64,000 bases of DNA from Eledone cirrhosa (taxonomy: Eukaryota): the NCBI GenBank assembly GCA_964016885.1, contig OZ024743.1:266414001-266478000 (forward strand), written 5' to 3'. A model generated the notes under the pieces. The model worked only from the letters and a program-made list of their open reading frames with translations. It was not told the origin of the DNA and made no database searches. A program made the position numbers and the translations under genes. How positions within the stretch are numbered: the first letter of the stretch is position 1; each line of letters begins with the position of its first letter. Shown one piece after another: positions 12,879 through 60,647 of the stretch.

Positions 12879-12950
12879 ATAGTCGTAGCTATGGTGCTTC
12901 CGTAGGCGGTATGCCAAAATTAGCACTCAATATTCATCAGAGTAGAGTGT

Positions 12951-13769
12951 ATATATTATCAAGAAATCGAAAAATCAGTAATGCATCTGGACTTAGTTTA
13001 TTTCGTATTACAAATGTTTCGCCGGCATGTAGCTCGAGTCATGGTCCTTGTATGGATTTGGCTGATTCTACTTCTGCGGGTTCTTTCAGACACGTCTGTT
13101 ATGTCCGGAGCAAATTTTATCACTGGGATGTTGTTATCAAAACAACCCCTCAAAAAACTTTCTTTCCACTCTTGTCATGCCATTGGCTGTTTTTACTCCA
13201 CATCATCACAAGTTCTGGTCAGTATCTGCTGCCACACTTTCATCAACTATTTTCTGTCCGACATATTTCAATGGAGTCATGCTGGTTTCAGTACCTCACA
13301 CGTCTGCTCACACTTCAGAGTAAGCACCCACACATACTAGAATAATCACATAGTAACACACACATATATATACTCAGACATACACCTATCTATGCATTCA
13401 CACTCGTATGTTTACATGCTCAGATACCCACACCGCCACATACATACATCGCAGTATATATACTCACACACCCTCTCTCCCTCTCTCCGTGTGGCAGCAG
13501 ATACTGACCAGAACTTGTGATCACGTGGAGTAAAAACAGCCAATGGCATGCCAAGAGTGGAAAGAAGGTTTTTTGAGGGGTTGTTTTGATAACAACACCC
13601 CAGTGATAAAATTTGCTCCGGACATAACACCCGTGTCTGAAAGAACCCGCAGAAGTAGAATCAGCCAGATCCACACAGGGACCATGACTCGAGCTATATG
13701 CCGGCGAAACATTTGTAACACGAAATAAACTAAGTCCAGATGCATCACTGATTTTTCGTTTTCTTGATA

Positions 13770-13775
<6 letters not shown>
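12951..13775. mobile_element. Fold-back element with ~285-bp inverted arms, HHR-like motif, ends in (TA)n
   Basis: 12951-13237 is the reverse complement of 13489-13775; same family as 19672-19950. Confidence 0.85.
13632..13722 (+). ncRNA. Hammerhead-like motif (variant core, long stem II)
   Basis: CGTGT-CTGAAAGA...GCCGGC-GAAA-CATTTG-TA-ACACG; stem I CGTGT/ACACG. Confidence 0.5.
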
Positions 13776-13809
<34 letters not shown>

Positions 13810-13854
13810 TAATTCAAAATATTAACAAAAATAGACATTCGTGTGATCAAGTAT

Positions 13855-13918
13855 ATTTTATTATACATATTTCAGAGGTACTGAGCTATCTTCAACAGTA
13901 CGTCCTCATCAGATAAAA
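13855..13918 (-). ncRNA. Type I hammerhead ribozyme motif (antisense arm copy)
   Basis: Reverse complement of 16339-16403. Confidence 0.7.
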
Positions 13919-14626
13919 GAAGATGATGCATGACATACCCTGACTTAGTAGACGGTTAAGATTCAGTCATGGTAGTGAATAAGATATGACAAAACTCAAT
14001 ATGTATATACCTTAAGATTGAGACATGAAAGAATGTACATATAATCCGTGTGAGAAAGCTTAAAAATACATAATAGCAATTTACATAACTGTTAGAGATT
14101 CAAATAATTTAAATTATTGAAGAAAGAAGAAAGAAAGAAGAAAGACAGAGAAACAGATGAGGAAAAAACATAGTTAATAGAAGTATAGAAAGCAAAATAT
14201 AATTGATCAAGGATAGAGAGACAAGGAGGAAAAAAGTTTATAGTATAAAGCATAGGGAGGGAGATTTGTATTGTCGTGGATGAATAGGGTGTGATTAGAT
14301 GATGCAAAAATATATATATATATATAAATACATGAATATACATTTGGGCATAGCTTTGTGAAAGAGTAAACTCGAATCTTTGAATTATCTAGAAGTATCC
14401 ATCAATCTAAATATTAAATATATCTGGGTGTAATTATATGAGGGTTTAATTTCTAGTCTTTAGTTAATTAGAAATATACTAACAATTAATTATATACACT
14501 ATATATATATATCCAAACGTATCTGGCAGACCGTTAAATTTCGAATCATTTATGTTAGTTCAGAATAATGAATTAATCTAAAGGTATAATATTTCAGGCT
14601 ATAAAAGTTATAAATATCTATGTTAA

Positions 14627-14776
14627 TATTGTTTCTACTTTAGGCACAAGGCCAGCAATTACCCAGTGTATTACTGGTACTTTATTTTATCGACCCCGTA
14701 AGGATGAAAGGCAAAGTAAACCTCGGCGGGATTTGAACTCAGATCGTAAAGGGACGTAACTATGCTGGAAAGCATA
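14627..14776 (-). mobile_element. SINE family A, 5'-truncated
   Basis: Reverse complement match to the family. Confidence 0.85.
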
Positions 14777-15888
14777 TCTATATTAATATTAAAGTATACT
14801 ATTATATTTAATTTATAAAATCATATTTAAAGTATTTGCAAACATGAGAAAGAAGAGACTTAATATTTTCATCCTCACAAAGGTAATCCATATCAAATTA
14901 TATTATTTTATATTATATTAAACATTTTTTTTTATATTAAAATAATAATTCTCATTATATAATTTAGAAAATAATTACAGTTATAACTTTAAACATTTTA
15001 AATTAACAATTAGAATGCCCTAAAGTATCTAAAGGCCTTATAATTAAACTTAAAAAAGGGTATTATTAAATTAGATATACCCATTTGTCTAAATATATAC
15101 AAAGAGTATATTGTCTAAAGTTCAAGACGATATTAGTCAGTTATACACAATATAATATAATATAATAAATAAGTTACTGTTAATAGTGTTCAAATTAAGG
15201 TTTTAGATAAATTATTATATTAGAATCATGTAATACATATATACTATAAATATACAAATCAAACTTCATGAATCATAAGGATAAGAACCAGATTAAAAAA
15301 AAAAAAGTAAATTGTTTGTGATCATAAACGTGCCAAATATCTAAGCTATATAATTTAAAAATACAAGAACATTTTTAAGGATCTATATTGTAGTATAATA
15401 TCATATGTAAAGTGTCTGCAAACGTAAGAAAGAGAAAACTTAAGATTTTCATCGACCCGAAGGTAACCCGAATTTAATTAAATTAAATAATAATCATCGT
15501 TATATAATTAAGAAAATAATTAACAATTATAAGACTAGAATGTCCTTAAGTATCTAAAATACTTATAAATGTAGCTAGAAGCATGTTATTAAACTACATA
15601 TATACATATGTCTAAATATATACAGAGTATTCTGTTCGGAACTCAAGACGATATTAGTGATCCAAATACATATAATAAATAATAAATACAATCATTGTTA
15701 GTAAAGATTATAATTGAAGTTTTACATCAAGTTAAGTGAAAAATGTTTGTCGACTAGGATCGAATGCGACGCATATACCATAAATATATATAAATAAATA
15801 TAAATATAAATATATAAATCAAACATCCTGAATCTTACAAGTAACATACTCCAAATGAATAAATACATAAATACATGAATGCATGAAG

Positions 15889-16078
15889 GGGCGGTAGATT
15901 GGCAGTATCGGTAGAGGGTCGGACGCCATGCTTTCCAACATAGTTACGTCCCTTTACGATCTGAGTTCAAATCTCGCCGAGGTTGACTTTGCGTTTCATC
16001 CTTACGGGGTCGATAAAATAAAGTACCAGTAATGCACTGGGTAATTGCTGGCCTTGTGCCTAAAGTAGAAACAGTTAT
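15889..16078 (+). mobile_element. SINE family A, full length
   Basis: Near-identical to 35508-35697. Confidence 0.9.
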
Positions 16079-16338
16079 TTGCTTTTACGGTGCATTGATA
16101 GACCAGACAATTATTTTGCAGAGGACAATTTGATCGATTTCTACAATTACATTTCGATTTATTGTTATTACAAATGGGACAATTGACATTAACATTGTTA
16201 GTACTTTGAAGTGTTCTATTGATTGTTTTTCATGTCTCAATCTTAAGGTATATAAATATTGAGTTTTGTCATATCTTATTCACTACCATGACTGAATCTT
16301 AACCATCTACCAAGTCAGGGAATGTCATGCACCATCTT

Positions 16339-16403
16339 ATTTTATCTGATGAGGACGTACTGTTGAAGATAGCTCAGTACCTCTGAAATATGTATAATAA
16401 AAT
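16339..16403 (+). ncRNA. Minimal type I hammerhead ribozyme
   Basis: Stem I ATTTTAT/ATAAAAT; core CTGATGA; stem II GGACGTACTG/CAGTACCTCT; GAAA; short near-palindromic stem III ATATGTAT; cleavage triplet ATA. Confidence 0.75.
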
Positions 16404-16567
16404 ATACTTGATCACACGAATGTCTATTTTTGTTAATATTTTGAATTAATATTAATAACTCCGGAAAACCATTTTGTTGAGTGCTTCCAATCTATTGTAA
16501 AACTCATTCTTTGATTTATTCATTGAACCTTGTTTAACCTTTATATATATATATATATATATATATA

Positions 16568-17086
16568 GTTAAAAGAATAGAGGTGTAACACACAAGTTAT
16601 TATATATTGGTAAACGGAATAGAAAATGCTGACAAATTGTTCACAGTTGAAAAATGGTTTAATTAGGAATAAAAGAGTATTAGTGATTGTATGGGTTAGT
16701 ATTCAGTTGTGGTTTTAAGTTTTTAAGTTTTTACCGGTTGCGCATTTCTAAATGCTTTTCAAAAATAATTTTGAGATAGAGTGTCCGTGCTGTTTGCTCT
16801 GATCTGATTAGTTTTGGGAATTCTACCTGTTTTTATGTTTAAAAAATGGCTCCAGCGTTATTTTTGTGTTGCAAAAATGTTTGTGGTCAAAACAATTTTG
16901 ATTGGTCGGTAGAGGTCATGTGAATGTAAAAAGTTGATTTTGCGCCAAGACTGTTTTTATGTTAAAATGTTAGAAAAGTGGCTCCAGCAAAAATTATGGT
17001 CAAAACAATTTTGATTGGTCGGTAGAGGTCATGTGGATAAAAAATTGGTTTTGCGCCAGGATTGAGAAATGACTCTTTCACAACAA

Positions 17087-17130
<44 letters not shown>

Positions 17131-17824
17131 TAGTAGTAGTAAGGTGTTCGATGCTGCGACAATAGCCACCAGCGATGTGTGTCAAATGGCTATTAAGATA
17201 AGTGTGTGTGTGTGTGTGTGTGTGTGCGTACATACACACAGCAGAGTCATTCGAAGGTCAAAAGATATTTTTCAGCTTTTGTCTTATACGGAAAAGTGCG
17301 TGTGTGTGTGTGTGTGTGTGTATAAGTCTCTTTGTATGTTGATGTACGCGTGTGTATGTGTTTGTGTATATATGTGTGTGTGTGTGTGTGTGCGTGTGTG
17401 GGTGGACCAGTATTTGTTTCCCCCCTGGTAAAATGGTGTACATTATTCGATTTTTTCAGTAAAATCGGTTCTCTTAATAGAACATCAAGAATCTTAACAA
17501 TAAAAGGTGTGAAATGATATTCACTATATATATATACACACACACACACACATATATATATATATTTTCACTACATATATACATATATATATATACATAT
17601 ATACATACACACAAATGCACATATATTGTTTTGTATTGCACCATAGAGCATGTGTGTTTACGTGTGTCATTGTGTTTATATGTGGGTAGAGATGTGTGCT
17701 GATGTAGGTATGTATGTTGACGTGTGTATGTTGTGGGTTCGTCTTAGGGAGAAGTGTTTAGACGGGGTCCGTATTTGTTAATGAAGTAAGATTCCTTGCT
17801 GATGCGCTGGGTGTGGGTGGCATT
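16568..17824 (-). mobile_element. 5'-truncated Penelope-like element (GIY-YIG C-terminus plus 3'UTR)
   Basis: 17740-17824 reverse complement matches 33004-33090 (…QRISKESYFINKYGPRLNTSP*); 3' end abuts (TA)n. Confidence 0.85.
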
Positions 17825-17926
17825 ACACACGTAAACACACATGCTCCATGGTGCAATACAAAAAAATATATGTGCATGTGTGTGTATGTATATATGTATA
17901 TATATATATGTATATATGTAGTGAAA

Positions 17927-17971
<45 letters not shown>

Positions 17972-18263
17972 GTGAATATCATTTCACACCTTTTATTGTT
18001 AAGATTGTTGATGTTCCACTAAGAGAACCGATTTTACCGAAAAAATCGAACAATGTACACCACCTCACCAGGGGGGAAAAAACACTGGTCCACCCACACA
18101 CGCCCACACACACACACACACACATATACACAAACACATACACACGCGTACATCAACATACAAAGAGACCTATACACACACACACACACACACGCACTTT
18201 TCCGTATAAGACAAAAGCCGAAAAATATCTTTTGACCTTCGAATGACTCTGCTGTGTGTATGT

Positions 18264-18306
<43 letters not shown>

Positions 18307-18374
18307 TCTCAATAGCCACTTGACACACATCGCTGGTGGCCACCGTCGCAGCATCGAACACCTTACCACCACTA

Positions 18375-18428
<54 letters not shown>

Positions 18429-19225
18429 TTGTTGTGAAAGAGTCACTTCTCAATCTTGGCGCAAAACCAACCTTTCATCCACACGACCCCCACCGACCAA
18501 TCAAAATTGCTTTGACCATAATCCTTGCTGGAGCCACCCTTCCAACATTTTAACATAAAAACAGTCTTGGCGCAAAATCAACTCTCTACATTCACATGAC
18601 CTCCACCGACCAATCAAAATTGCTCCGACCACAAGCACTTCTGCAACACAAAAACAACGCTGGAGCCACCTTTTAAACATAAAAACAGGTAGAACTATTG
18701 CCGGCTGCGAATCAATTTGAACACACAATAAATTAAGTTTTCGTTTTCTATTTGTTGTGAAAGAGTCATTTCTCAATCTTGGCGCAAAACCAATTTTTTA
18801 TCCACATGACCTCTACCGACCAATCAAAATTGTTTTGACCATAATTTTTGCTGGAGCCACTTTTCTAACATTTTAACATAAAAACAGTCTTGGCGCAAAA
18901 TCAACTTTTTACATTCACATGACCTCTACCGACCAATCAAAATTGTTTTGACCACAAGCATTTTTGCAACACAAAAATAACACTGGAGCCATTTTTTAAA
19001 CATAAAAACAGGTAGAATTCCCAAAACTAATCAGATCAGAGCAAACAGCACGGACACTCTATCTCAAAATTATTTTTGAAAAGCATTTAGAAATGCGCAA
19101 CCGGTAAAAACTTAAAAACTTAAAACCACAACTGAATACTAACCCATACAATCACTAATACTCTTTTATTCCTAATTAAACCATTTTTCAACTGTGAACA
19201 ATTTGTCAGCATTTTCTGTTCCGTT
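17825..19225 (+). mobile_element. Inverted second arm of the same PLE 3'UTR with internal ~268-bp tandem duplication
   Basis: Reverse complement of ~16600-17667; 18428-18695 duplicates 18751-19018; ends in (TA)n. Confidence 0.9.
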
Positions 19226-19227
19226 TA

Positions 19228-19282
<55 letters not shown>

Positions 19283-19470
19283 GAAAATAAATCAGGAAGT
19301 TTCGCATACATGTGAAAGATATTTACTGAATATCGACCTGTTACACACGTTTCTCTGATGATTGGCTCAATATCACCATATGAATTATGGATCCGACTCC
19401 ATTATCTATCTGCTCCTTAGACTGGAGATATGACGAAATATATAGGTTTGTTGTTGTACGTGACATGGAA

Positions 19471-19600
<130 letters not shown>

Positions 19601-19671
19601 TGGTAGCTAAGATGCCTCCATACGCGGTATGCCGGTTGAGCACTCTATGCTCTTACAGAGCAGAGTATGAT

Positions 19672-19950
19672 GGAATAGAAAACGAAAAATCAGTGATGCA
19701 TCTGAACTTAATTTATTGTGTGTTCAAATTGATTCGCAGCCGGACAGCTCAAGACGCGATCATTGTGTGGATTTCGGATCATATACTCTCAGAATATGCT
19801 CCGAAATCATTAAACGTGTCCGTCGAACCTGCGGGTCCAGAATCAGACAGATCCACACAATGATCGCGTCTCAAACTGTCCGCCGGCGAAACAATTGTAA
19901 CACACAATAAATTGAGTTCAGATGCATCACTAATTTTTCGTTTTCTATTC
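19672..19950. mobile_element. Short fold-back element with degenerate hammerhead
   Basis: Arms 19672-19772/19851-19950; GTGT-CCGTCGA...GAAA-CAATTG-TA-ACAC at 19816-19903. Confidence 0.75.
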
Positions 19951-20184
19951 TATATATGTATATATATATATATAGAGAGAGAGAGATAGATATAGATATA
20001 AATGTAATCTGAGTATAATATTCGATTCGTTTGTAATTTAACAATCTGGCTGATCAGTCAGATCGGTATATTAGCAGATCCACTGATCAGCGAGATTTGA
20101 AATCAGCAGACAGGCCAGTCAGTTTCATGCATACGAGTGAGTAATGGCCGGCTTTGCCATATTCAAATAACTATAAAAAAAACT

Positions 20185-20449
20185 TATCGCTCTACATGGC
20201 TTAATACAATAAATTTAATCTGAATTTTTCGAATATCTATAATAATATTCGATTCGTTTGCAAGTATGCAAACGAGCCTTTTTAAAGCCATTACAGTAGA
20301 ACAAGCCCCTCATTATTGCGCTTATGTTGGGATGTAAACAGAACTGCAGACACTAATATTTCTGGGTGATTGCAAAAGAATCGAATATCATTATTAATAT
20401 TCGAAAAGCACAGATTACATTTATTGTATTCAGCCATGTAGAGCGATAA
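20185..20449. repeat. Inverted repeat of the family also at 34620-35020
   Basis: TCGCTCTACATGGCT...GTTTGCAA vs TGCAAAAGAATCG...AGCCATGTAGAGCGA. Confidence 0.7.
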
Positions 20450-21215
20450 TTTTCTTTCTTTTTTTTTTTTTAGATATAGATGTATGTGTGTGTGAAATGA
20501 AATGGAAACAACTGGAGAAAATCGGGTAAAGGTACCACGAGCTTCACAACATTTCGGTTATTTGTAACGACTGCTGAGCACATTTTTCGACTATAGGGGC
20601 ATCTCTACCTGATTTTCTGAGGCTCTTTTCTCAGCTATTCTTTTGCGTTTGAGATTTTCTTCATTTCTATAAATATTTCAGCTCACTTGACGCTTTAATG
20701 TTTAATTACAAATATTCAACTATACATATATATACACGCATGGGCACATATAATTTCATACAAATACACGTATGTGTTTGTGTATGAGTTCGCGTTTGAG
20801 TGTGTATGTGTGTGTGTCTGTATATCTGTGTTGTGTGCGTGTGTGTGTGTCTGTGTATGTGAAATAGAAACATAGATTATTAAGAGGAAAATTCAAAAAT
20901 AGTAATGTCGAAACAAAGTCTTGGAGATTTTGTCACGGCTTTGTTTTATCTTAGAAACTAAGAATTTCTGAAATCTAACGAAAGAAACTTACCATTTTCC
21001 AAAAAATATCTTTTAGTTTATCTTTTTCGAATTTTTTTAAAACATACTTCGATCATAACTTTCTAAAATCTCTTTGAACAAATCACAGAGTTAGGAACTG
21101 GGAATTTTATTATTTAAATTAATAGAATGTTTGTTTTTCTTTTCTATTTTCTTTTAGCTTCTTACCCGAAAAAATCATTGATCTTCAAAGCGGTGACTTG
21201 GCAGAATATCCAGAG

Positions 21216-25249: not shown

Positions 25250-25895
25250 GACTCCCACATTGTATGATTTCGACTTAGCACCATTTATCCGACCACAAAT
25301 ACACGTACTTTCGTGTGGAGACTTCAGAGCAAGACAAAGCTGACCATTGATCCTATATTCCTGCAGAACTTTCCACGAGGGATACGTACTCTCACCTATC
25401 CTCATCATTATTTTCCTGAAGATGATTGACATGCGCAGTATCACAAGTGAATTTGCCGTCGACATGGTACTTAACTCGACAGAACCTGGTATCTGACATG
25501 GTCTTGGTAGGTTTGATGCCGTGTGCTGCATGCCTGGAATGAAAATCAGTGCAATGAACATTGAGACACTCGCCCTCTCAAGGAAGCCTGCGCTGTACTC
25601 TATACGTGTCAATGGATTTACAGTGAACCAGTTGGAGAAGTATGTCGGGGACGTGTTCACGAGTGATGGAAGTCAGTCTGCCGAATTATGTGCAAGAATT
25701 CCAGGGGCATGTGTAGTAATACACAAGCTTCAGAATTTAGTAATCAAAAGAAAGGAGGTAGGTGTAGAAACCAAACTCACTCACCTCAATTCAGTATTCG
25801 TGCCAACCCGTACCAATGGTCATGTATCTTAGGTGGGTAATGACTGACAGAATACGACCGCGATTATAAGCGAGTGGGTTTCCTCCGAAAGGCCA
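25250..25895 (+). pseudogene. Decayed RTE-clade LINE RT fragment
   Basis: GYVLSPILIIIF; GMKIS...ETLALSRKP; VNQLEKYVG; 25790-25895 is homologous to 58007-58110. Confidence 0.65.
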
Positions 25896-31875: not shown

Positions 31876-32369
31876 TTGACAGTGCGCCGGAAAGTTTAAC
31901 ACTTGAGTACTGATAAAAGTCATGATCAAAAGGATTTTGACAACAAAGCAAGTTGATTGTACACTATATGAATATATCGAGCAACGGCATTAGTTGGGAT
32001 GAATTCCGCACAAGGTGGATGAGATGAAGGTTGCCATTTCCCAACCCTAGTGTAAATAACATAGTGAATAACCTAAATTGATTTTAAAAGTTATGTTTAG
32101 TCAGGTATTAAGAATGATGCAAGTTAATGAGCTGCCCGAGGAAATATAGAAAATAATCCTTTAAACAAAATATTGTGGTATGTCTAAGGCTGTACTGACG
32201 GAAATAATGTATGAAATTTAAATAAATTTAGTAGAACTGTTTTAAAATGTTGCTGACTTAGTAGTAAATATAAAGTATGTATCAGTATGCGAAGAATAAC
32301 TACTGGAAAAATCATTTTAAAAAATGAAACATGTACACACAAACAGAGACACATAAACATACCCAAATA

Positions 32370-32415
<46 letters not shown>

Positions 32416-32417
<2 letters not shown>

Positions 32418-33738
32418 TAAAACTCAGTACCCAGGGCCTTAGACACACTAAAGTAAATCAACCGAAACTAAAAGCTCTTCCATACATCTCCACACACAAC
32501 CCCCTCAACAATGAGGCCTTTGACACCATCCTCCAGAACATCCATGTGTTGAAAAAGGACCATAGAATGAACCAAATCCTACGAACACACGATATCATAA
32601 AGAGCAAAAGACAATCTAAGTCAATGAAAAACATCCTAACACATGCCAAAGTACTGCCAACCACAACAACGAAATCCACAGTAAAAAAATGCGATAGACC
32701 CAACTGTGGCATATGCATCAATCTAATAGAGGGTTCGGAATTCTATTTCAAAGAAGGACAAAGTTTTATAGTAAAACACAATTTCACATGCACATCAGAA
32801 AATCTAATATATGTATTAACTTGCTCTGGTTGAGAACAATACATAGGCCAGACCAAAATTAGCCTCCGCCAACGCATGACTGTCCATAGATCCCAAATTA
32901 AAATACGGGAATACAGGAAAATACCACTGAGTGAACACATTGATACCTGCGCCGCCCAAAATCATCCCAACTTCAGAATCTTTCCCCTCTACAAATTTAA
33001 AGATAATGCCACCCATACCCAGCGCATCAGCAAGGAATCTTACTTTATTAACAAATACGGACCCCGTCTAAACACTTCTCCCTAAGACGAACCCACAACA
33101 TACACACGCAAACATACATACCTACATCAGCATACATCTCTATCCACATATAAACACCATGACATACGTAAACACACATGTTCTATGGTGCAACACAAAT
33201 ATACACATATTTGCATACTTTTGATGTCTATAGATATAAACGTGCCGACACACACACATACATAAACGCACACACGCATTGCACACTGATGAGCACATAA
33301 ATATTTGTACACAAGTATTCCAATACGGCAAGGCCTAATGGATTCCCCTTGCAGTACGTACAATCTGGACACTCACACACACCTTGGTATTATGCCGATA
33401 CTATATATCATTTCACACATTTTATTATTAAGGTTTTTGATGTTCTATTGAGAGAATCGTTTTTACTGAAAATATCGAAGAATGTACACCATTTTACCAG
33501 TATCACAAAAATAAATACTGTGTCCACCCACACACACACACACACACATATATATATACACACACACATACACACGCGTACATTAACATACAAAGAGACA
33601 TATACACACACACATACACACACACACACACTCCTCCGTATAATATAAGAGCTGAAAAATAACTTTTAACATGTTAAAATATCCCCACACACTTACAGAC
33701 ACATTCCTACTGACCATCCCTCTACCCGAATTACTCTG

Positions 33739-33807
<69 letters not shown>

Positions 33808-34350
33808 TCTTAATAGGCATTTGAACTATCAACAGGCTGCTTGTCGCACACACATCCCTGCTGACCATTATCCCAACAACGAACTACTACTACTACACAC
33901 ACACACACATATTTGTTTTGAAAGACTTATTTTTCAGTGACTTCTCAATCAGCCGTCACAAATCTACATTTGGCGCAAAATCAATTTTTAACATATGACC
34001 TCTACCGACCAATCAAAATTGTTTTGACCACAAGAATTTTTGCAACACGAATTGGCGCAAAACTTATTTTAATACATCTGGAGCCACTTTTTTCACATAA
34101 AAACAGGTAGAATTTCCAAAACTAATCAGATTAGAGCAAACATCACAGACGCTCTATCTCAAAATTATTTTTGAAAAGCATTAGAAATGCGCAACCGGTA
34201 AAACTTAAAACCAAAACTGGATACTAACCAATACTATTACTAATTCTCACTTATTCCTAATTAAACTATTTTTCACTGTGAGCAATTTGTCAGCATTTTC
34301 TTTTCCGTTTACCAATATATCATAACTTGTGGGTTACACCTCTATTCTTT

Positions 34351-34352
<2 letters not shown>
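32416..34352 (+). mobile_element. 5'-truncated Penelope-like element inserted in (TA)n
   Basis: GIY-YIG region plus long CA-rich 3'UTR; (TA)n at 32372-32415 and 34354-34411. Confidence 0.9.
32417..33085 (+). pseudogene. PLE linker/Zn finger plus GIY-YIG endonuclease, one in-frame TGA at 32831
   Basis: LPYISTHNP; CDRPNCGIC; NLIYVLTCSG*EQYIGQT...LRQRMTVHR...EH...R..KESYFI..Y.PRLN. Confidence 0.9.
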
Positions 34353-34411
<59 letters not shown>

Positions 34412-38794: not shown

Positions 38795-41700
38795 GTCAGC
38801 CAACGCCATCAGTCGCATATTTTGGTGTGGGAGACTATTCATTAAATTTAAGATGAATACTATCTCCGACAGTAATGCTACAACTACCAGTCATGTTGCA
38901 TAACTGGATATTCTTCTAACTATATCTACTGAAGGCACCTTTTATTCGAATTCGGAGAGATATCCGACAAAATACATAATTCATTTTACAAAGATTTGCT
39001 ACAAACAGCATGGCTGAACACAACATCAACAACAACAACATTAAGGAAGTACCGAAGAAAAACAACGAGAAAGGTTAAAAAATTTATTCAGTTGTAGCTG
39101 CAGAAGAAACCGAAATTATAAATCGCATTTCTCTTGGAGTTGTGAACATAATGATGATTTATTTTATTGTAATATAATGGCAAAAAACAATCCCTCCATT
39201 GGCTATATGAACAGAATGAAGCTACACTGGGACGAAATACACCCAGAGATAAATCACTTCACAGCAAAACAATTACGCCAACAAGTGAGGTTTGTTGAAC
39301 GTAAAAATAAGATAAATATTATTAATTGTAAGTCCCCCACAACAAACATGGGATCAACAACAGGTGCTACTGGTCGCCATGCTACTTGACTCCCTAGCAG
39401 CCATGTCGAACAGTGATTTGAAACAACTATGCCTGTATGAAACTTGACACCACGTGTACCATCTAAGTCTACCTCAAATGCAGGGGAAAATACTATCGAT
39501 AATAATAATAATAATCGAAGAAATAATGCTTTTCTTTATTAACCACAAGGGTTTACACAAATAGACATTAAGGACAGTACAGGTCAATACAGGGCAATAC
39601 AGATGGGCATTTCTTTGTGTAAAAAAAAACAAAAAACAGAGGATGTAATAAAAAGAACAATTAAAAATTCTCCAATAGGGGGGGGGGTGACTTCCGAGGG
39701 CCATCGTGGAGAAAGCCCATTAAAAAAAAGCCACGGTGATTCTGACCACCAGGGCAAGTGTCCTCTCCCAGTTTTCCACCTTCAATTTACAGGCATATAC
39801 TCAGAGCCATTCTTGCCTCTCTCACCCATCTTTCAACAAAAATCTGGGAAGAGAGCATTTCCCTCTCTACACTAATTTTCCTTTTCAAATGAAATTTGAA
39901 TCGAGGAAATTTGACAACACTTGTACCATCCGAGTCTACCTCGACTATTGTGGAAAATACCATCGATAACGATAATAATGAAAAATATAAACAATTGAAC
40001 ATTTCCCTCAACGAAATCTTCCAGAGAAAAATTAATTCATGTATAAATATCTCTCTTGCTGAACTTATTAAAACAAGAATATTTAATAAAAAAACAAATA
40101 ATGAAATATTACGTGTTATTGACGAAATAGAGGCCGAATATTTACGACGGATAAAAACCCCAATATTTTGGCAAATCAACGCCTGTTTATATGCCTTAGC
40201 AACGACAGTGAAGCATTATCTTGGTGATAGCAGAGATATTAACAAGAACAAAACACCACCAAAAATGCCATCATACATAACTAAAATAGAAAAAAAGATT
40301 GCTGACCTACGAAAACCATTGGATATGTGACAATGCTCCTTACATGCAAACAAACACAAAGAAAACCTCACTCCTCACCAACAAAGAGTGAAAAATAAAA
40401 TAGAGACGGTATTTGGTAACAGTAGAATCAGAACCCTTCAATATAAGCTGATCACCCTCAAACAAGAATTGAGAGCTGTTAGCGAAAAACGCCGATGCCT
40501 AAAGTGGGTAGATGAAAGAAAAGTGATTAATAAAAGATTCAGACGAAATCAAACATCAGTCTATAGAGATATGAAGGACAAAATAATAAGTGTCACTGAG
40601 GCCCCATCCCAGAAAGACATAGATTCCATTTTTTTGAGAAAAATATGGGGTGAAAAGAAAAATGTCAACCAAGATGCAGTGTGGCTAAAAGAAATCCGAA
40701 AGAACTATTGCTCCTACACTAAAACAAAAGCATACGAAATAAGTGAGGGTACACTTGAGACTGTGATAGGAAAACTCCAATATGAGAAAACACCAGGAAG
40801 AGTCATGATTGTCGGCTACTGGTACAACAATCTGATATTCTATCGGAGGTATCATATTGAATTCTACCAACTAGTTCTTAAGAGAGATACACTTATACCA
40901 GAATGGTTGACATTAGCACAAACATTAGTGGTCCCCAAGAACAAAGACACCCACTTGGCAAAAAACTACCGACCCATTGCATGCCAGAACCCGATATATA
41001 AGATGTATACAGCTTGCCTGAACCTATTCCTCCAAGATCAACGTGAAAATAATAACATCATCACAGATGAACAAGCAGCTGGAAAGAAAGGGGTTTGGGG
41101 ATGTGCTGAACAACTCCTAATCAACAAAACTGCGATGTCACAGGTGCGACAACTTAGGAGGAATATGGCTAAAGTCTGGCTGGACTACAGGAAAGTTTTC
41201 GATTCTGTTCTCCACTCTTGGATGATAAAGGCCTTCCAACTTGCTAAAGTCCCAGACATTATCAAAGCTATAGAGAAGCTGTCTTTTTATTGGGCTACTA
41301 TCCTAAGGTTAAAAACAGAGAGGGAGGACTCTATTTTCACTGATAAAATAAAATATCGCAGGCTTATATTTCAGGGAGACAGTATCTCTGTGATATTATT
41401 CATCCTGTCATTAAACCCCTTGTCTTTTCTGCTCAAGAAATGTGAAGGACATAAATATGAACTTAACCCATAATTTCTTTGTGGATGATCTGAAACTCTA
41501 TGCCAAGAACATGGATGGGATGAAGAAAAATCTTGACCTGGTTACAACGTTCTCAAAGGAAATAGGAATGGAGTTTGGCCAAGATAAATGCTCATATATG
41601 ACTGTAAAGCGGGGAAAACAACAACCCAATCTAGCAACATTGTCATCAATGGCCTAACTGTTTCATCGATATCTGATGAGGACTGCCACAGATACCTGGG

Positions 41701-43285
41701 ATAGATGAGAACATATGTTATAATGGTATCTGTAATAAAGAACGCGTAACCAGGGAATACTACACACGATAAAGAAAGATTTGGTCATTGGAAATCTCTG
41801 CGCAAAACAAAACAGTGGCTCACAAAGTTATTGCTGTGCCTGTCCTAACACAAACGTTTGTAATACTCAATTGGACGATAGATGAAATCCGAGCAGTTGA
41901 TGTTAGAACTCGAAAAATACTAAACAACACAGGAAACTTCCACATCAACAGTGACATAGACCGCCTTTACTTGAAACAACGTAAGCAGGGAGGCAGTGGC
42001 CTAACATCAGTCCAGACAGAATTTGAATGTCGCATCGTATCCCTCCGACTACATCTACGAACCTCGAAGCGTAGGAGCCCATTTCTCGAGCAAGTCTATC
42101 TCCATGAAACATAGAAAATCATGAGAGTTGGGAAGGAACTCCTCGAGAGATATTCCCTGTGTGATAATCAAAAAATCACACCCAGGGAAGTTGCTCAGCA
42201 GTATCGCAGTGAATTCATGGATGAAAAACTGCATGCTTATCATCAAAATACCATGCATAGATATGTTGCCAGGAAGCTCCAGAGTGAGAGAAATATAGAT
42301 AAGGACCGACAACCGCTATATTGGCTCCCACTTTGAAGGATAGCTTTTGCAATCCAAGAACAGGAAATTAACATGAAATACGTGATTCACAAAAGAGATA
42401 GGGATGCAGGCAAAACACCTAGATGTGATAACAAGTGCAGAATCTGCAGAATTAACATCGAAGATGTCACCCGTGTCATCGCGGTACTATCTACCTATGA
42501 GGCATGATGTAGGGGCCATAACACTGTACAATGCAATCCGTAGAAAAGATAGCCCCGAAAATAAACACATTAAAAGCTACAGCAATGTGGAAGACATCCA
42601 TATACATAATATGAAAGAGTACTGTTGGAATGTTCCAGTAAAAAGCCCAATAAAATGCAGGCATAACAGACTAGATATTATGATAAGGGACAGGGAGAAG
42701 AACATACATACATACAGACCAGATATTATGATATGGGACAGGGAGAAGAAAGCATGCACAGTAGTGGAAATTAGCTACCCAGCAGATGCCAATATAATAT
42801 CAAAGATTAGTGAAAAGGAGAATATTTATGCAGAATTGATAACAAAACTCCAGATTCTCCACCCTGATTACACCTTCAGATTTATGCCTGTGATTATTGG
42901 GGCACTGGGGTATGTTAGTAACTGCCTTAATACAAATCCTGAGAAGTTAGGCTTCACAGGAACAGAAAGAACACAACTAGTTAGGAAATTACAAGTACAA
43001 TCCATTAATGGAACAATAAAAATATGTAAAACATTCCAAAAATGTTGCATCTAATAACTGCATATACACATGTACAGTTGCAAAGCATATACACATGCAC
43101 ACATACAACTCAAAACATACACATCCACACATACAATAACATCCATATCTACACATGCATACATACATATCTACCTAGTTGATGTTGTGTAAATTCCAAT
43201 GAGAGAGTATTGTGTTTATGTTAGAAACCGACTCTCTCTCTATTGGTAAAACTTTGTGAAATTATAAAACCAGAAGAACATACAT
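38795..43285 (+). mobile_element. Near full-length decayed R4/Dong-type non-LTR retrotransposon (RT plus REL endonuclease)
   Basis: NYRPIAC, WLDYRKVFDSV, IFQGDSIS, FFVDDLKLY, RHD, RPDIMIWD...VVEISYP...EK..Y; multiple frameshifts; 5' boundary approximate. Confidence 0.9.
39520..39890 (-). mobile_element. Insertion within the R4 element, probable LINE 3' end
   Basis: Reverse strand ends CCCTTGTGGTTAATAAAG...; sits in an (AAT)n stretch between internal repeats 39442-39512 and 39910-39978. Confidence 0.35.
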
Positions 43286-50661: not shown

Positions 50662-50722
<61 letters not shown>

Positions 50723-50727
<5 letters not shown>

Positions 50728-51754
50728 TAATATATATCTGAGGGTACAATGTACCCCGGGAAATATATAGTGTGTCTATGATTTAAGGTGGTTCTATGGT
50801 AATAATTTGATATACCAGAACTTAATATCAAGATAAGCAGAACAAGTAAAATTCAACCAATTTTTCAAAATAAATCAAAATTAATTACAATTAAAATTAA
50901 TCAAAATTAAAAAATATAATATAAATATTTACCTATTCAAATGGCCCTAACTGTACAGTTTCACGGTGCAAAACATTAGATATCACGAGGATATTAATGG
51001 AAAAGCAACGATCATCAGAGAAGCATTTTCTTGTCCTAGGGTTAAAAACCCCAAGAACGACAAAATATATGACCTCACTCCAACTAATACAGGTCTGAAA
51101 GGTCGTGAAAATGACCCGTAAATACATTGGTGTATAGTGAAGGCGGGAAATCGTAGACTAGCCGTCTATGATCGCTACTAAAAAAGATTTTTAGCAACTA
51201 AATAGAACGACAAGATTTTTCTCTACATACTGGAGAATGTTGAATAAGGTTAATATATATCTGAAGGTACAATGTACCCCGGGAAATATATAGTGTGTCT
51301 ATGATTTAAGGTGGTTCTATGGTAATAATTTGATATACCAGAACTTAATATCAAGATAAGCAGAACAAGTAAAATTCAACCAATTTTTCAAAATAAATCA
51401 AAATTAATATACAATTAAAATTAATCAAAATTAAAAAATATAATATAAATATTTACCTATTCAAATGGCCCTAACTGTACAGTTTCACGGTGCAAAACAT
51501 TAGATATCACGAGGATATTAATGGAAAAGCAACGATCATCAGAGAAGCATTTTCCTGTCCTAGGGATAAAAACCCCAGGAACGACAAAATATATGACCTC
51601 ACTCCAACTAATACAGGTCTGAAAGGTCGTGAAAATGACCAATTTGAATAGGTAAATATTTATATTATATTTTTTAATTTTGATTAATTTTAATTGTATA
51701 TTAATTTTGATTTATTTTGAAAAATTGGTTGAATTTTACTTGTTCTGCTTATCT

Positions 51755-51760
<6 letters not shown>
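50723..51760 (-). mobile_element. Tandem ~523-bp hammerhead-bearing units with terminal fold-back
   Basis: 50723-51245 is repeated from 51246 to 51640; 51642-51758 is the reverse complement of ~51347-51464; minus-strand HHR at 50945-51023 and 51469-51547. Confidence 0.8.
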
Positions 51761-58004: not shown

Positions 58005-58573
58005 AATTCAGTATTCGTGCCAACCAATACTTCTAGTCATGAATCTTCGGTAATGACAGAAAGAATACGATCGCGAATACTAACGGCCGAAATGGGTTTC
58101 CTCCGAAGGGTCTGTGTAGTAACGTTATTCGATAAAGTACATAGCTCAGATATCAGAGAGTCACCACAGGTAGAGACGCTACTTCTCCGAATTGCCATAT
58201 CACAGCTCCGGTTCTATGGGGATGTGGTTAAAATGGCCCAGGAAAGAATCGCTGGACAGCTTTTACATGCAAAACCAACTGGCAGGAGCCCTAGGGATAG
58301 GCTCGGAGCAAGATGGTTGGGTAACATATATGCGCTCGGTTGTTATCGCTTGGGTATCTAGCCGGATAATTTGGAAGCGTTTGATTTTGACAAAATGTGC
58401 TGGAAGGAGTGTTTGAGTACACTGCCCCCATGACTCTCTCAGGAATAAGTTGACGAAGAAGAAGAAGAAGAAGAAGAAGAAGAAGAAGAAGAAGAAGAAG
58501 AAGAAGAAGAAGAAGAAGAAGAAGAAGAAGAAGAAGAAGAAGAAGAAGAAGAAGAAGAAGAAGAAGAAGAAGA
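58005..58573 (+). mobile_element. RTE-clade LINE 3' end with (GAA)n tail
   Basis: AEMGFLRRV...DKVHSSDIRE...QLRFYGDVVKM...GRSPRDR..RW; (GAA)n at 58455-58573. Confidence 0.8.
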
Positions 58574-58574
58574 A

Positions 58575-60647
<2,073 letters not shown>

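Follow-up and report, generated by a model that had tools for sequence, protein, structure and literature searches.

The window, that is, the whole stretch of 64,000 nucleotides analysed here (C4:266414001-266478000 of the 3.0-Gb genome G000), contains a composite copy of a repeat whose parts are listed in Table 1. Two unedited arms of opposite orientation, facing outwards, lie between two target microsatellites, and a hyper-edited tract and a short junction insert stand between the arms. The insert copies the reverse complement of 19674-19743 exactly in two pieces, of 39 and 15 nt, and omits 17 nt of it; it has a few untemplated bases at its left and a 3-nt microhomology to the right arm B. 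A distant donor for the junction between copy A and the insert was considered and rejected, because the genome search matched only this local element. It is one of two MITE-like elements in the window (12950-13776 and 19674-19957), which have long inverted ends (288 nt at 95% in the first) and are 74-83% identical to each other. The left arm, the tract and B share an allele present in 6 of 53 segments, and the left arm and the tract share a variant present in none of 36 other segments; five further private changes of the left arm are absent from the tract. The shared rare allele and variant indicate that a single source lineage gave rise to all three parts, which are young and similar in age. 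No donor copy was found in the genome; seven other genome copies carry the shared variant, and these have an older haplotype where readable (five of the seven at that site, one partly, one unreadable).

Table 1. Features of the window locus and positions of the other edited loci. Positions without a prefix are those of the window.
Feature	Position	Strand or orientation	Remarks
Left (TA)n target microsatellite	16542..16567		
33-nt optional 3' tail of the element	16568..16600	-	left arm only
Left arm, 5'-truncated unedited copy	16601..17825	sense on -	ORF 3' end and pseudo-LTR
RT/GIY-YIG ORF, final 26 codons with stop codon	17744..17824	-	
Hyper-edited tract (locus 1)	17826..18695	element sense on +	45 T>C; includes copy A, 18427-18695
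Other differences, upstream part of tract versus left arm	17864, 18007		left-arm private changes
Other difference, upstream part versus left arm	17824		junction base
Other differences, upstream part versus left arm	17878, 18104		in or beside microsatellites
55-nt junction insert	18696..18750	+	
Right arm B, an unedited 3' end of the element, 5'-truncated	18750..19237	+	
Right (AT)n target microsatellite	19231..19279		
Small inverted-repeat (MITE-like) element	19674..19957		left end is the apparent insert template
Locus 2	G000:C3:87240701-87239493 (L095 5493-6701)	minus	older-subfamily sense copy
Locus 3	G000:C437:25126-26006 (L130 4126-5006)		26-kb unplaced contig; edited part 25273-25719
Locus 4 (probable)	G000:C4:102481401-102482200 (L142 7401-8200)		internal patch in a ~2-kb unedited sense copy

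By its sequence, the repeat is a young Penelope-like retrotransposon with a predicted reverse transcriptase (RT) and GIY-YIG nuclease. The minus strand of the left arm ends in 26 codons and a stop that are identical to the ends of the 784-residue ORFs of longer copies, and these ORFs, in copies L043 and L034, match RVT_1 and GIY-YIG above the Pfam curated cut-offs. The nuclease is preceded by a CX4CxxC motif, which points to an element of the Neptune/Nematis type. Copies of the family show variable 5' truncation and end at (TA)n, with or without the 33-nt extension (reference position 1225 or 1258); a tail of 30-40 bp has been described for Penelope-like elements (PMC11167929, PMC8557442). A 25-nt sub-repeat motif in its unedited form occurs 5,890 times in the genome as an exact match, one to three times per element. 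Among 56 other segments of the family there are 19 head-to-head pairs, which would be expected to give rise to abundant hairpin RNA. A purified Penelope-like protein nicks and extends both target strands (PMC11167929), an activity that would explain such outward-facing pairs. The first-pass annotation had described the locus as an inverted repeat: the inverted arms are real, and what went unrecognized is that they belong to a Penelope-like element with a reverse transcriptase of its own. A hammerhead ribozyme was also looked for. No hammerhead family appeared among 37 weak, microsatellite-driven Rfam matches in 16000-20500, and the canonical hammerhead core, in its commonly known form, was absent from both strands of one 4.8-kb copy; some Penelope-like clades are without this ribozyme (PMC8557442).

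Several other repeats were recorded. An older rearranged copy of the same family lies at 32357-34390 of the window, with part of the ORF at 32357-32833 and pieces of the pseudo-LTR, at 80-90% identity. Elsewhere in the genome, L035/L036 (G000:C1:404926001-404945000) contains tandem 3' ends of the element with one truncation point and kilobase-long (TA)/(TG) tracts between them, and in L090-L094 (G000:C4:204.1-204.6 Mb) five inverted fragments of the element, nearly identical, share one junction and probably reflect a segmental duplication. The window also holds RT frames of non-LTR retrotransposons at 40331-43054 and 58449-59981, and homologs of the second carry RVT_1; before this frame stands (GAA)40, and after it a duplication of 323 nt with (TAA)n. 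A very young direct duplication (397 nt, 98.7%) with a 119-nt inverted copy (99-100%) is found at 50721-51760.

When the tract at 17826-18695 is compared with the majority base among 33 other segments of the family, 45 T>C changes are seen among 235 T; on the minus (antisense) strand these read as A>G. Copy A (18427-18695) differs from its sister in B (18750-19018) by 25 T>C and one other change, the latter at site 18982 and private to B, and between the part of the tract upstream of copy A and the inverted left arm there are 20 T>C and the five other differences given in Table 1. These figures agree with those of the first-pass annotation (about 24-25 T>C and one other for copy A; roughly 19 T>C and about five others upstream), and the examples that it quoted are present. 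It was also right that copy A is derived, as C is unseen in the 33 other segments at 43 of the 45 edited sites. At the remaining two, C occurs in 3/22 copies (18123) and in 14/30 (18523); the allele combination of the tract at 18523 is unmatched in all other copies, so that C at this site is also best read as an edit. In the 56 segments outside the window, only 17 private T>C changes were counted in 18,866 T positions, and against this background the number in the tract has a binomial P of about 1e-82. With microsatellites masked, the tract has 41 T>C and 2 other changes, whereas private changes in each of the 56 outside segments number 0-3 for T>C and 0-5 for A>G; the change is thus strand-specific, as had been proposed. 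The left arm, in element orientation, has 0 A>G, 1 T>C and 5 other private changes. The edits are unevenly spread, being sparse at the start of the tract (1/25 favourable sites in 17826-18010 versus 38/108 beyond, p=0.001) and missing from dinucleotide runs (0/19 sites with a 5' U edited, versus 15/57 outside the runs).

The idea that the C variants define a dispersed subfamily was examined by a genome search with a two-edit motif, which matched only the two sub-repeats of the window; no such subfamily is present. Thirty other places with a single C at the UAG site were rejected as well, the 28 that were examined showing mixed ordinary divergence, and an excess of A>G in copies L007 and L023 was gone once microsatellites were masked. 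The energy model treats the edited pair as G:U, so that RNA duplex energies before and after editing carry no information.

The whole genome was then searched with short degenerate motifs demanding edits at favoured sites. A motif for A>G in the sense strand was found at 10 places, one of which, with five A>G in 29 nt, is locus 2. Of the 1,070 positions called in this copy in a comparison with 24 relatives, 147 show A>G (of 380 A) and 27 another change, among them 2 A>T, 2 A>C and 2 G>A. The density of edits climbs towards the 5' end, and neither a SINE-like insert (0 A>G in 45 A) nor the final 107 nt (0 in 33 A) is edited. No inverted partner for the edited part was found within 22 kb, and no near-identical unedited source in the genome, the best other copies being 73-79% identical over most of the query and 81-83% over ~600 bases. 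An independent two-edit sense pattern had no match in the genome; two-edit sense patterns built after locus 2 had been seen matched only locus 2 and are not independent of it.

Outside the window tract, the motif for antisense T>C was found at one place in the genome, locus 3, which is built in the same way as the window locus, with an unedited antisense arm, an edited middle and an unedited sense arm with the tail. Its middle is a tail-to-tail hairpin, and on one and the same strand A>G is found in the sense half (27/89) as well as in the antisense half (23/63), while the flanking arms have A>G at 1/83 and 0/40. The edited piece has element junctions at both ends and shows non-edit differences from the adjoining arm, and the junction with the right arm lies at a short palindrome with a 24-nt duplication. 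Edits are thus seen on both arms of the duplex at locus 3; the window and locus 2 have one arm only, and its partner is presumed. Most of the same contig (G000:C437:1001-24900) consists of satellite sequence based on (TA), with an inverted repeat of 10 kb at 92%.

A screen in which 128 sequences were aligned all against all (4,272 alignments, with up to 12 targets for each query) flagged only loci 1-3 and one more, locus 4, where 43 of 271 A are changed to G alongside 11 other changes. Locus 4 is a probable hyper-edited copy. The scan suggested earlier for further one-way clusters has thus yielded two clear loci and one probable one, and edited copies are rare, with a lower bound of roughly one in a thousand. 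A 222-nt inverted repeat (97%) surrounds an inverted SINE-like pair (14630-14775 and 15928-16073) at 13809-16449 of the window; it is a possible hairpin substrate, in which the same screen flagged no one-way cluster.

Dense one-way A>G change is thus seen at four loci (45/235, 147/380, 50/152 and 43/271 for loci 1 to 4), and its sequence context was tallied at each. On the minus strand of the window tract, the edited A has a 5' U in 15 of 78 available sites, A in 24/75, C in 5/53 and G in 1/29; the depletion of 5' G has p=0.02, and U or A versus C or G p=0.0005. A 3' G is favoured (14/36, p=0.002), and UAG is edited at 8 of 10 sites; ADARs likewise prefer UAG. This is the context that the first-pass annotation had asked to be checked, since ADARs disfavour a 5' G. 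At locus 2, the rates for a 5' T, A, C and G are 53/73, 36/80, 42/136 and 8/41 (p=0.002), and at locus 3 a 5' G is edited in 1/20. Pooled over loci 1-3, with locus 4 kept out, the 5' rates are 0.47 for U, 0.38 for A, 0.24 for C and 0.11 for G (p=9e-7). Strong depletion of 5' G is shared by the hyper-editing of every animal that Porath et al. studied (PMC5625713). It is absent at locus 4 (8/26 or 8/21 in two tallies), which is why that locus is graded only as probable, and this counts against a uniform ADAR signature. The preference for a 3' G is not significant outside the window (14/30, p=0.7 at locus 2; 8/21, p=0.6 at locus 3); such a preference is weak or absent in invertebrate hyper-editing (PMC5625713), and loci 2 and 3 fit this description.

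The one-way clusters in the window and in at least two other copies suggest that edited RNA has been copied back into inherited DNA. We put the probability that RNA edited by an ADAR was copied by an RT, whatever the route, at roughly 85%; ADAR as the enzyme, RNA as the template, the RT itself and the order of events are what we infer from the pattern of substitutions. As to the route, it is probable that the copying took place by a template switch onto edited RNA in the course of a Penelope-like insertion. The window locus would then be one composite insertion of the retrotransposon into a (TA)n tract, in which the RT of the element would have extended both broken target ends on unedited sense RNA to give the left arm and B. 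The left cDNA would have switched template to a fragment of antisense RNA, derived from a sister inverted pair whose transcript would have folded back on itself and been hyper-edited by an ADAR (A to I) beforehand. Inosine in this template would have been copied as C, giving a new plus strand in which C replaces T. The edited cDNA would have been joined to B through a brief switch to flanking DNA and the 3-nt microhomology, and the joined product would have been fixed in germ-line DNA. Locus 2 may be the simple case, in which an edited sense RNA was retrotransposed. At loci 1 and 3 the template would have contained antisense sequence and come to lie between two unedited arms, an arrangement that fits a switch onto edited hairpin RNA during the joining of the cDNA ends. 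The non-edit differences and the unedited state of the arms rule out that either arm was copied by snap-back.

Where the edited RNA came from is the point on which we depart from the first-pass annotation, according to which it was a transcript of this very locus. The first 185 nt of the tract, paired in any local hairpin, are almost unedited at favourable sites, and the left arm that would pair with them is without edits. This leans to RNA from another copy, captured at insertion. The strongest competitor would nevertheless keep the edited RNA local: the pair would have been inserted unedited, its own minus-strand read-through transcript hyper-edited, and a later break near the hairpin tip repaired from that RNA, by the RT of the element or by Pol theta, with a local template switch and a duplication of 268 nt as the last steps. 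The duplication of A and B, the insert taken from 1 kb away and the 3-nt microhomology do resemble end-joining repair, human Pol theta can reverse-transcribe RNA (PMC8195485), and the failure to find a donor copy in the genome points the same way. However, the nearly unedited start of the tract is hard to reconcile with a local duplex, the edited piece of locus 3 is flanked by element junctions and differs from its adjoining arm at non-edit sites, and locus 2 is without a local partner arm. We consider this in-cis repair unlikely, and the capture of edited RNA at insertion remains the preferred route.

An origin at the level of DNA, with no edited RNA involved, appears more improbable still. 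An error-prone polymerase or RT might have placed G opposite T or U along a long tract, for which a polymerase of the Pol eta/iota type or a shortage of dATP are candidate sources, and the mutation signature of Pol eta also prefers a 5' T or A, as do the edits. An ADAR acting on the DNA strand of an RNA:cDNA hybrid would be another source, ADARs being able to deaminate dA in DNA/RNA hybrids (PMC5389660), and locus 4, with its undepleted 5' G, would sit more easily with such an origin. Against it, 19-39% of A are changed with almost no other private change, and the edits are uneven along the tract and avoid the dinucleotide runs. Deamination of cDNA on a sense template would give only T>C in the sense strand, yet locus 2 has A>G in the sense strand, and at locus 3 both orientations have A>G on one strand, so that no single rule of change in DNA covers it and locus 2 together. 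Snap-back on a deaminated left cDNA would, moreover, have left the left arm edited, and it is not.

That the changes could have entered through edited cDNA reads or RNA-based polishing makes their presence in sequenced reads of particular relevance. Three genome-scale runs (X1-X3) of one sample were used, possibly the source of the assembly itself and with no library type on record; each gave about 1.4 Gb of contigs (1.39 Gb for X1). Of the sampled words, 0.31, 0.29 and 0.17 were present in the three runs, and 0.22 of the words also occur in unedited copies; runs with only a small share of the words were set aside. The read test covered 18428-18775 (348 bases) of the window only. A contig of run X1, at a mean word depth of 4.16, matches 18428-18573 exactly, that is, 146 of the 348 bases with 13 edits, in one of the three runs; runs X2 and X3 gave no contig across the edited middle. 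The 55-nt insert was covered by none of four runs, and the RAD run X21 was without coverage of the edited sites. Such holes prove little, because rare paths drop out of contigs beside a family that is hundreds of times deeper. Confirmation in reads is limited to these 146 bases in X1. The limited span confirmed, the unrecorded library type and the possibly shared sample leave some room for an artefact of assembly or library. On the other hand, the X1 contig repeats one identical pattern of 13 edits, while edited RNA molecules differ among themselves, and the contigs of X1 are of genome scale. Locus 2 is without an unedited near-identical source, and its SINE-like insert and 3' end are unedited. 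An artefact is, in our estimate, very improbable.

Two other candidates can be dismissed: DNA editing by APOBEC because G>A is found 0 times in the window tract and twice at locus 2, and a diversity-generating retroelement, in which A is changed to any base in a template/variable repeat pair, because A goes almost only to G.

A-to-I editing is usually treated as transient. If the present reading is true, fixed ADAR-type clusters would give direct evidence of contact between ADAR and transposon RNA in germ cells, and of edits that can become heritable. They would provide a datable fossil record, an ADAR counterpart of the APOBEC-edited retroelements, and a sequence-only assay for the context, level and age of past germ-line editing, and they would throw light on how the Penelope RT, itself poorly understood, switches templates. 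Such loci also call for caution in editing pipelines, as they mimic or absorb edited reads. We further propose, tentatively and at somewhat less than even odds, that in the germ line the Penelope RT repeatedly jumps onto ADAR-hyperedited hairpin RNAs, antisense ones included, and fixes them in chromosomes. Editing would then be a recurrent source of heritable clustered mutation, and recoded host mRNAs could go the same way.

We found no earlier report, in the open-licence literature, of ADAR-type clusters fixed in retrotransposon copies of animals. The excerpts available from a review of human elements give no case of edited copies (PMC9148063), and one mouse provirus has been described with an excess of A>G that is without ADAR context (PMC12548423). 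The element itself resembles those of the Neptune/Nematis type (PMC8557442, PMC11167929) in its single ORF with RT and C-terminal GIY-YIG, its CX4CxxC motif, 5' truncation, inverted pseudo-LTR pairs, 30-40 nt tail and (TA)n targets. It differs from them in that no canonical hammerhead core was found, and edited inserts at the arm junction are unmentioned for the Neptune/Nematis type in the excerpts of these two papers. The Penelope RNA of a lizard is heavily edited, and hyper-editing in octopus is high (Porath et al., PMC5625713); the class of substrate and the depletion of 5' G are the same as here, yet those edits were described in RNA reads only, whereas the changes reported here are in the genome sequence. 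One of the two closest precedents is that of the APOBEC-scarred retroelement copies known in vertebrates (Knisbacher and Levanon, PMC4866542; Zaranek et al., PMC2873906). APOBEC editing of LTR retrotransposons likewise leaves strand-biased, deaminase-type clusters in genomic copies that are seen against the family majority. However, APOBEC acts on cDNA and gives G>A on the sense strand in vertebrates, and the G>A screen detected none in 19 invertebrate genomes (PMC4866542); the present clusters are A>G, occur in both orientations and have an ADAR-type context. The other close precedent is that of the Rous-associated and avian leukosis viruses hyper-edited by ADAR (Felder 1994; Hajjar and Linial 1995; reviewed in PMC12925331), in which up to about half of the A in an inverted-repeat region of a reverse-transcribed element show clustered A>G change. 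Those retroviruses are infectious, whereas the copies described here are non-viral Penelope-like elements residing in the host chromosome at several loci of different ages, and at two of these loci what is edited is a captured fragment with an unedited arm on either side.
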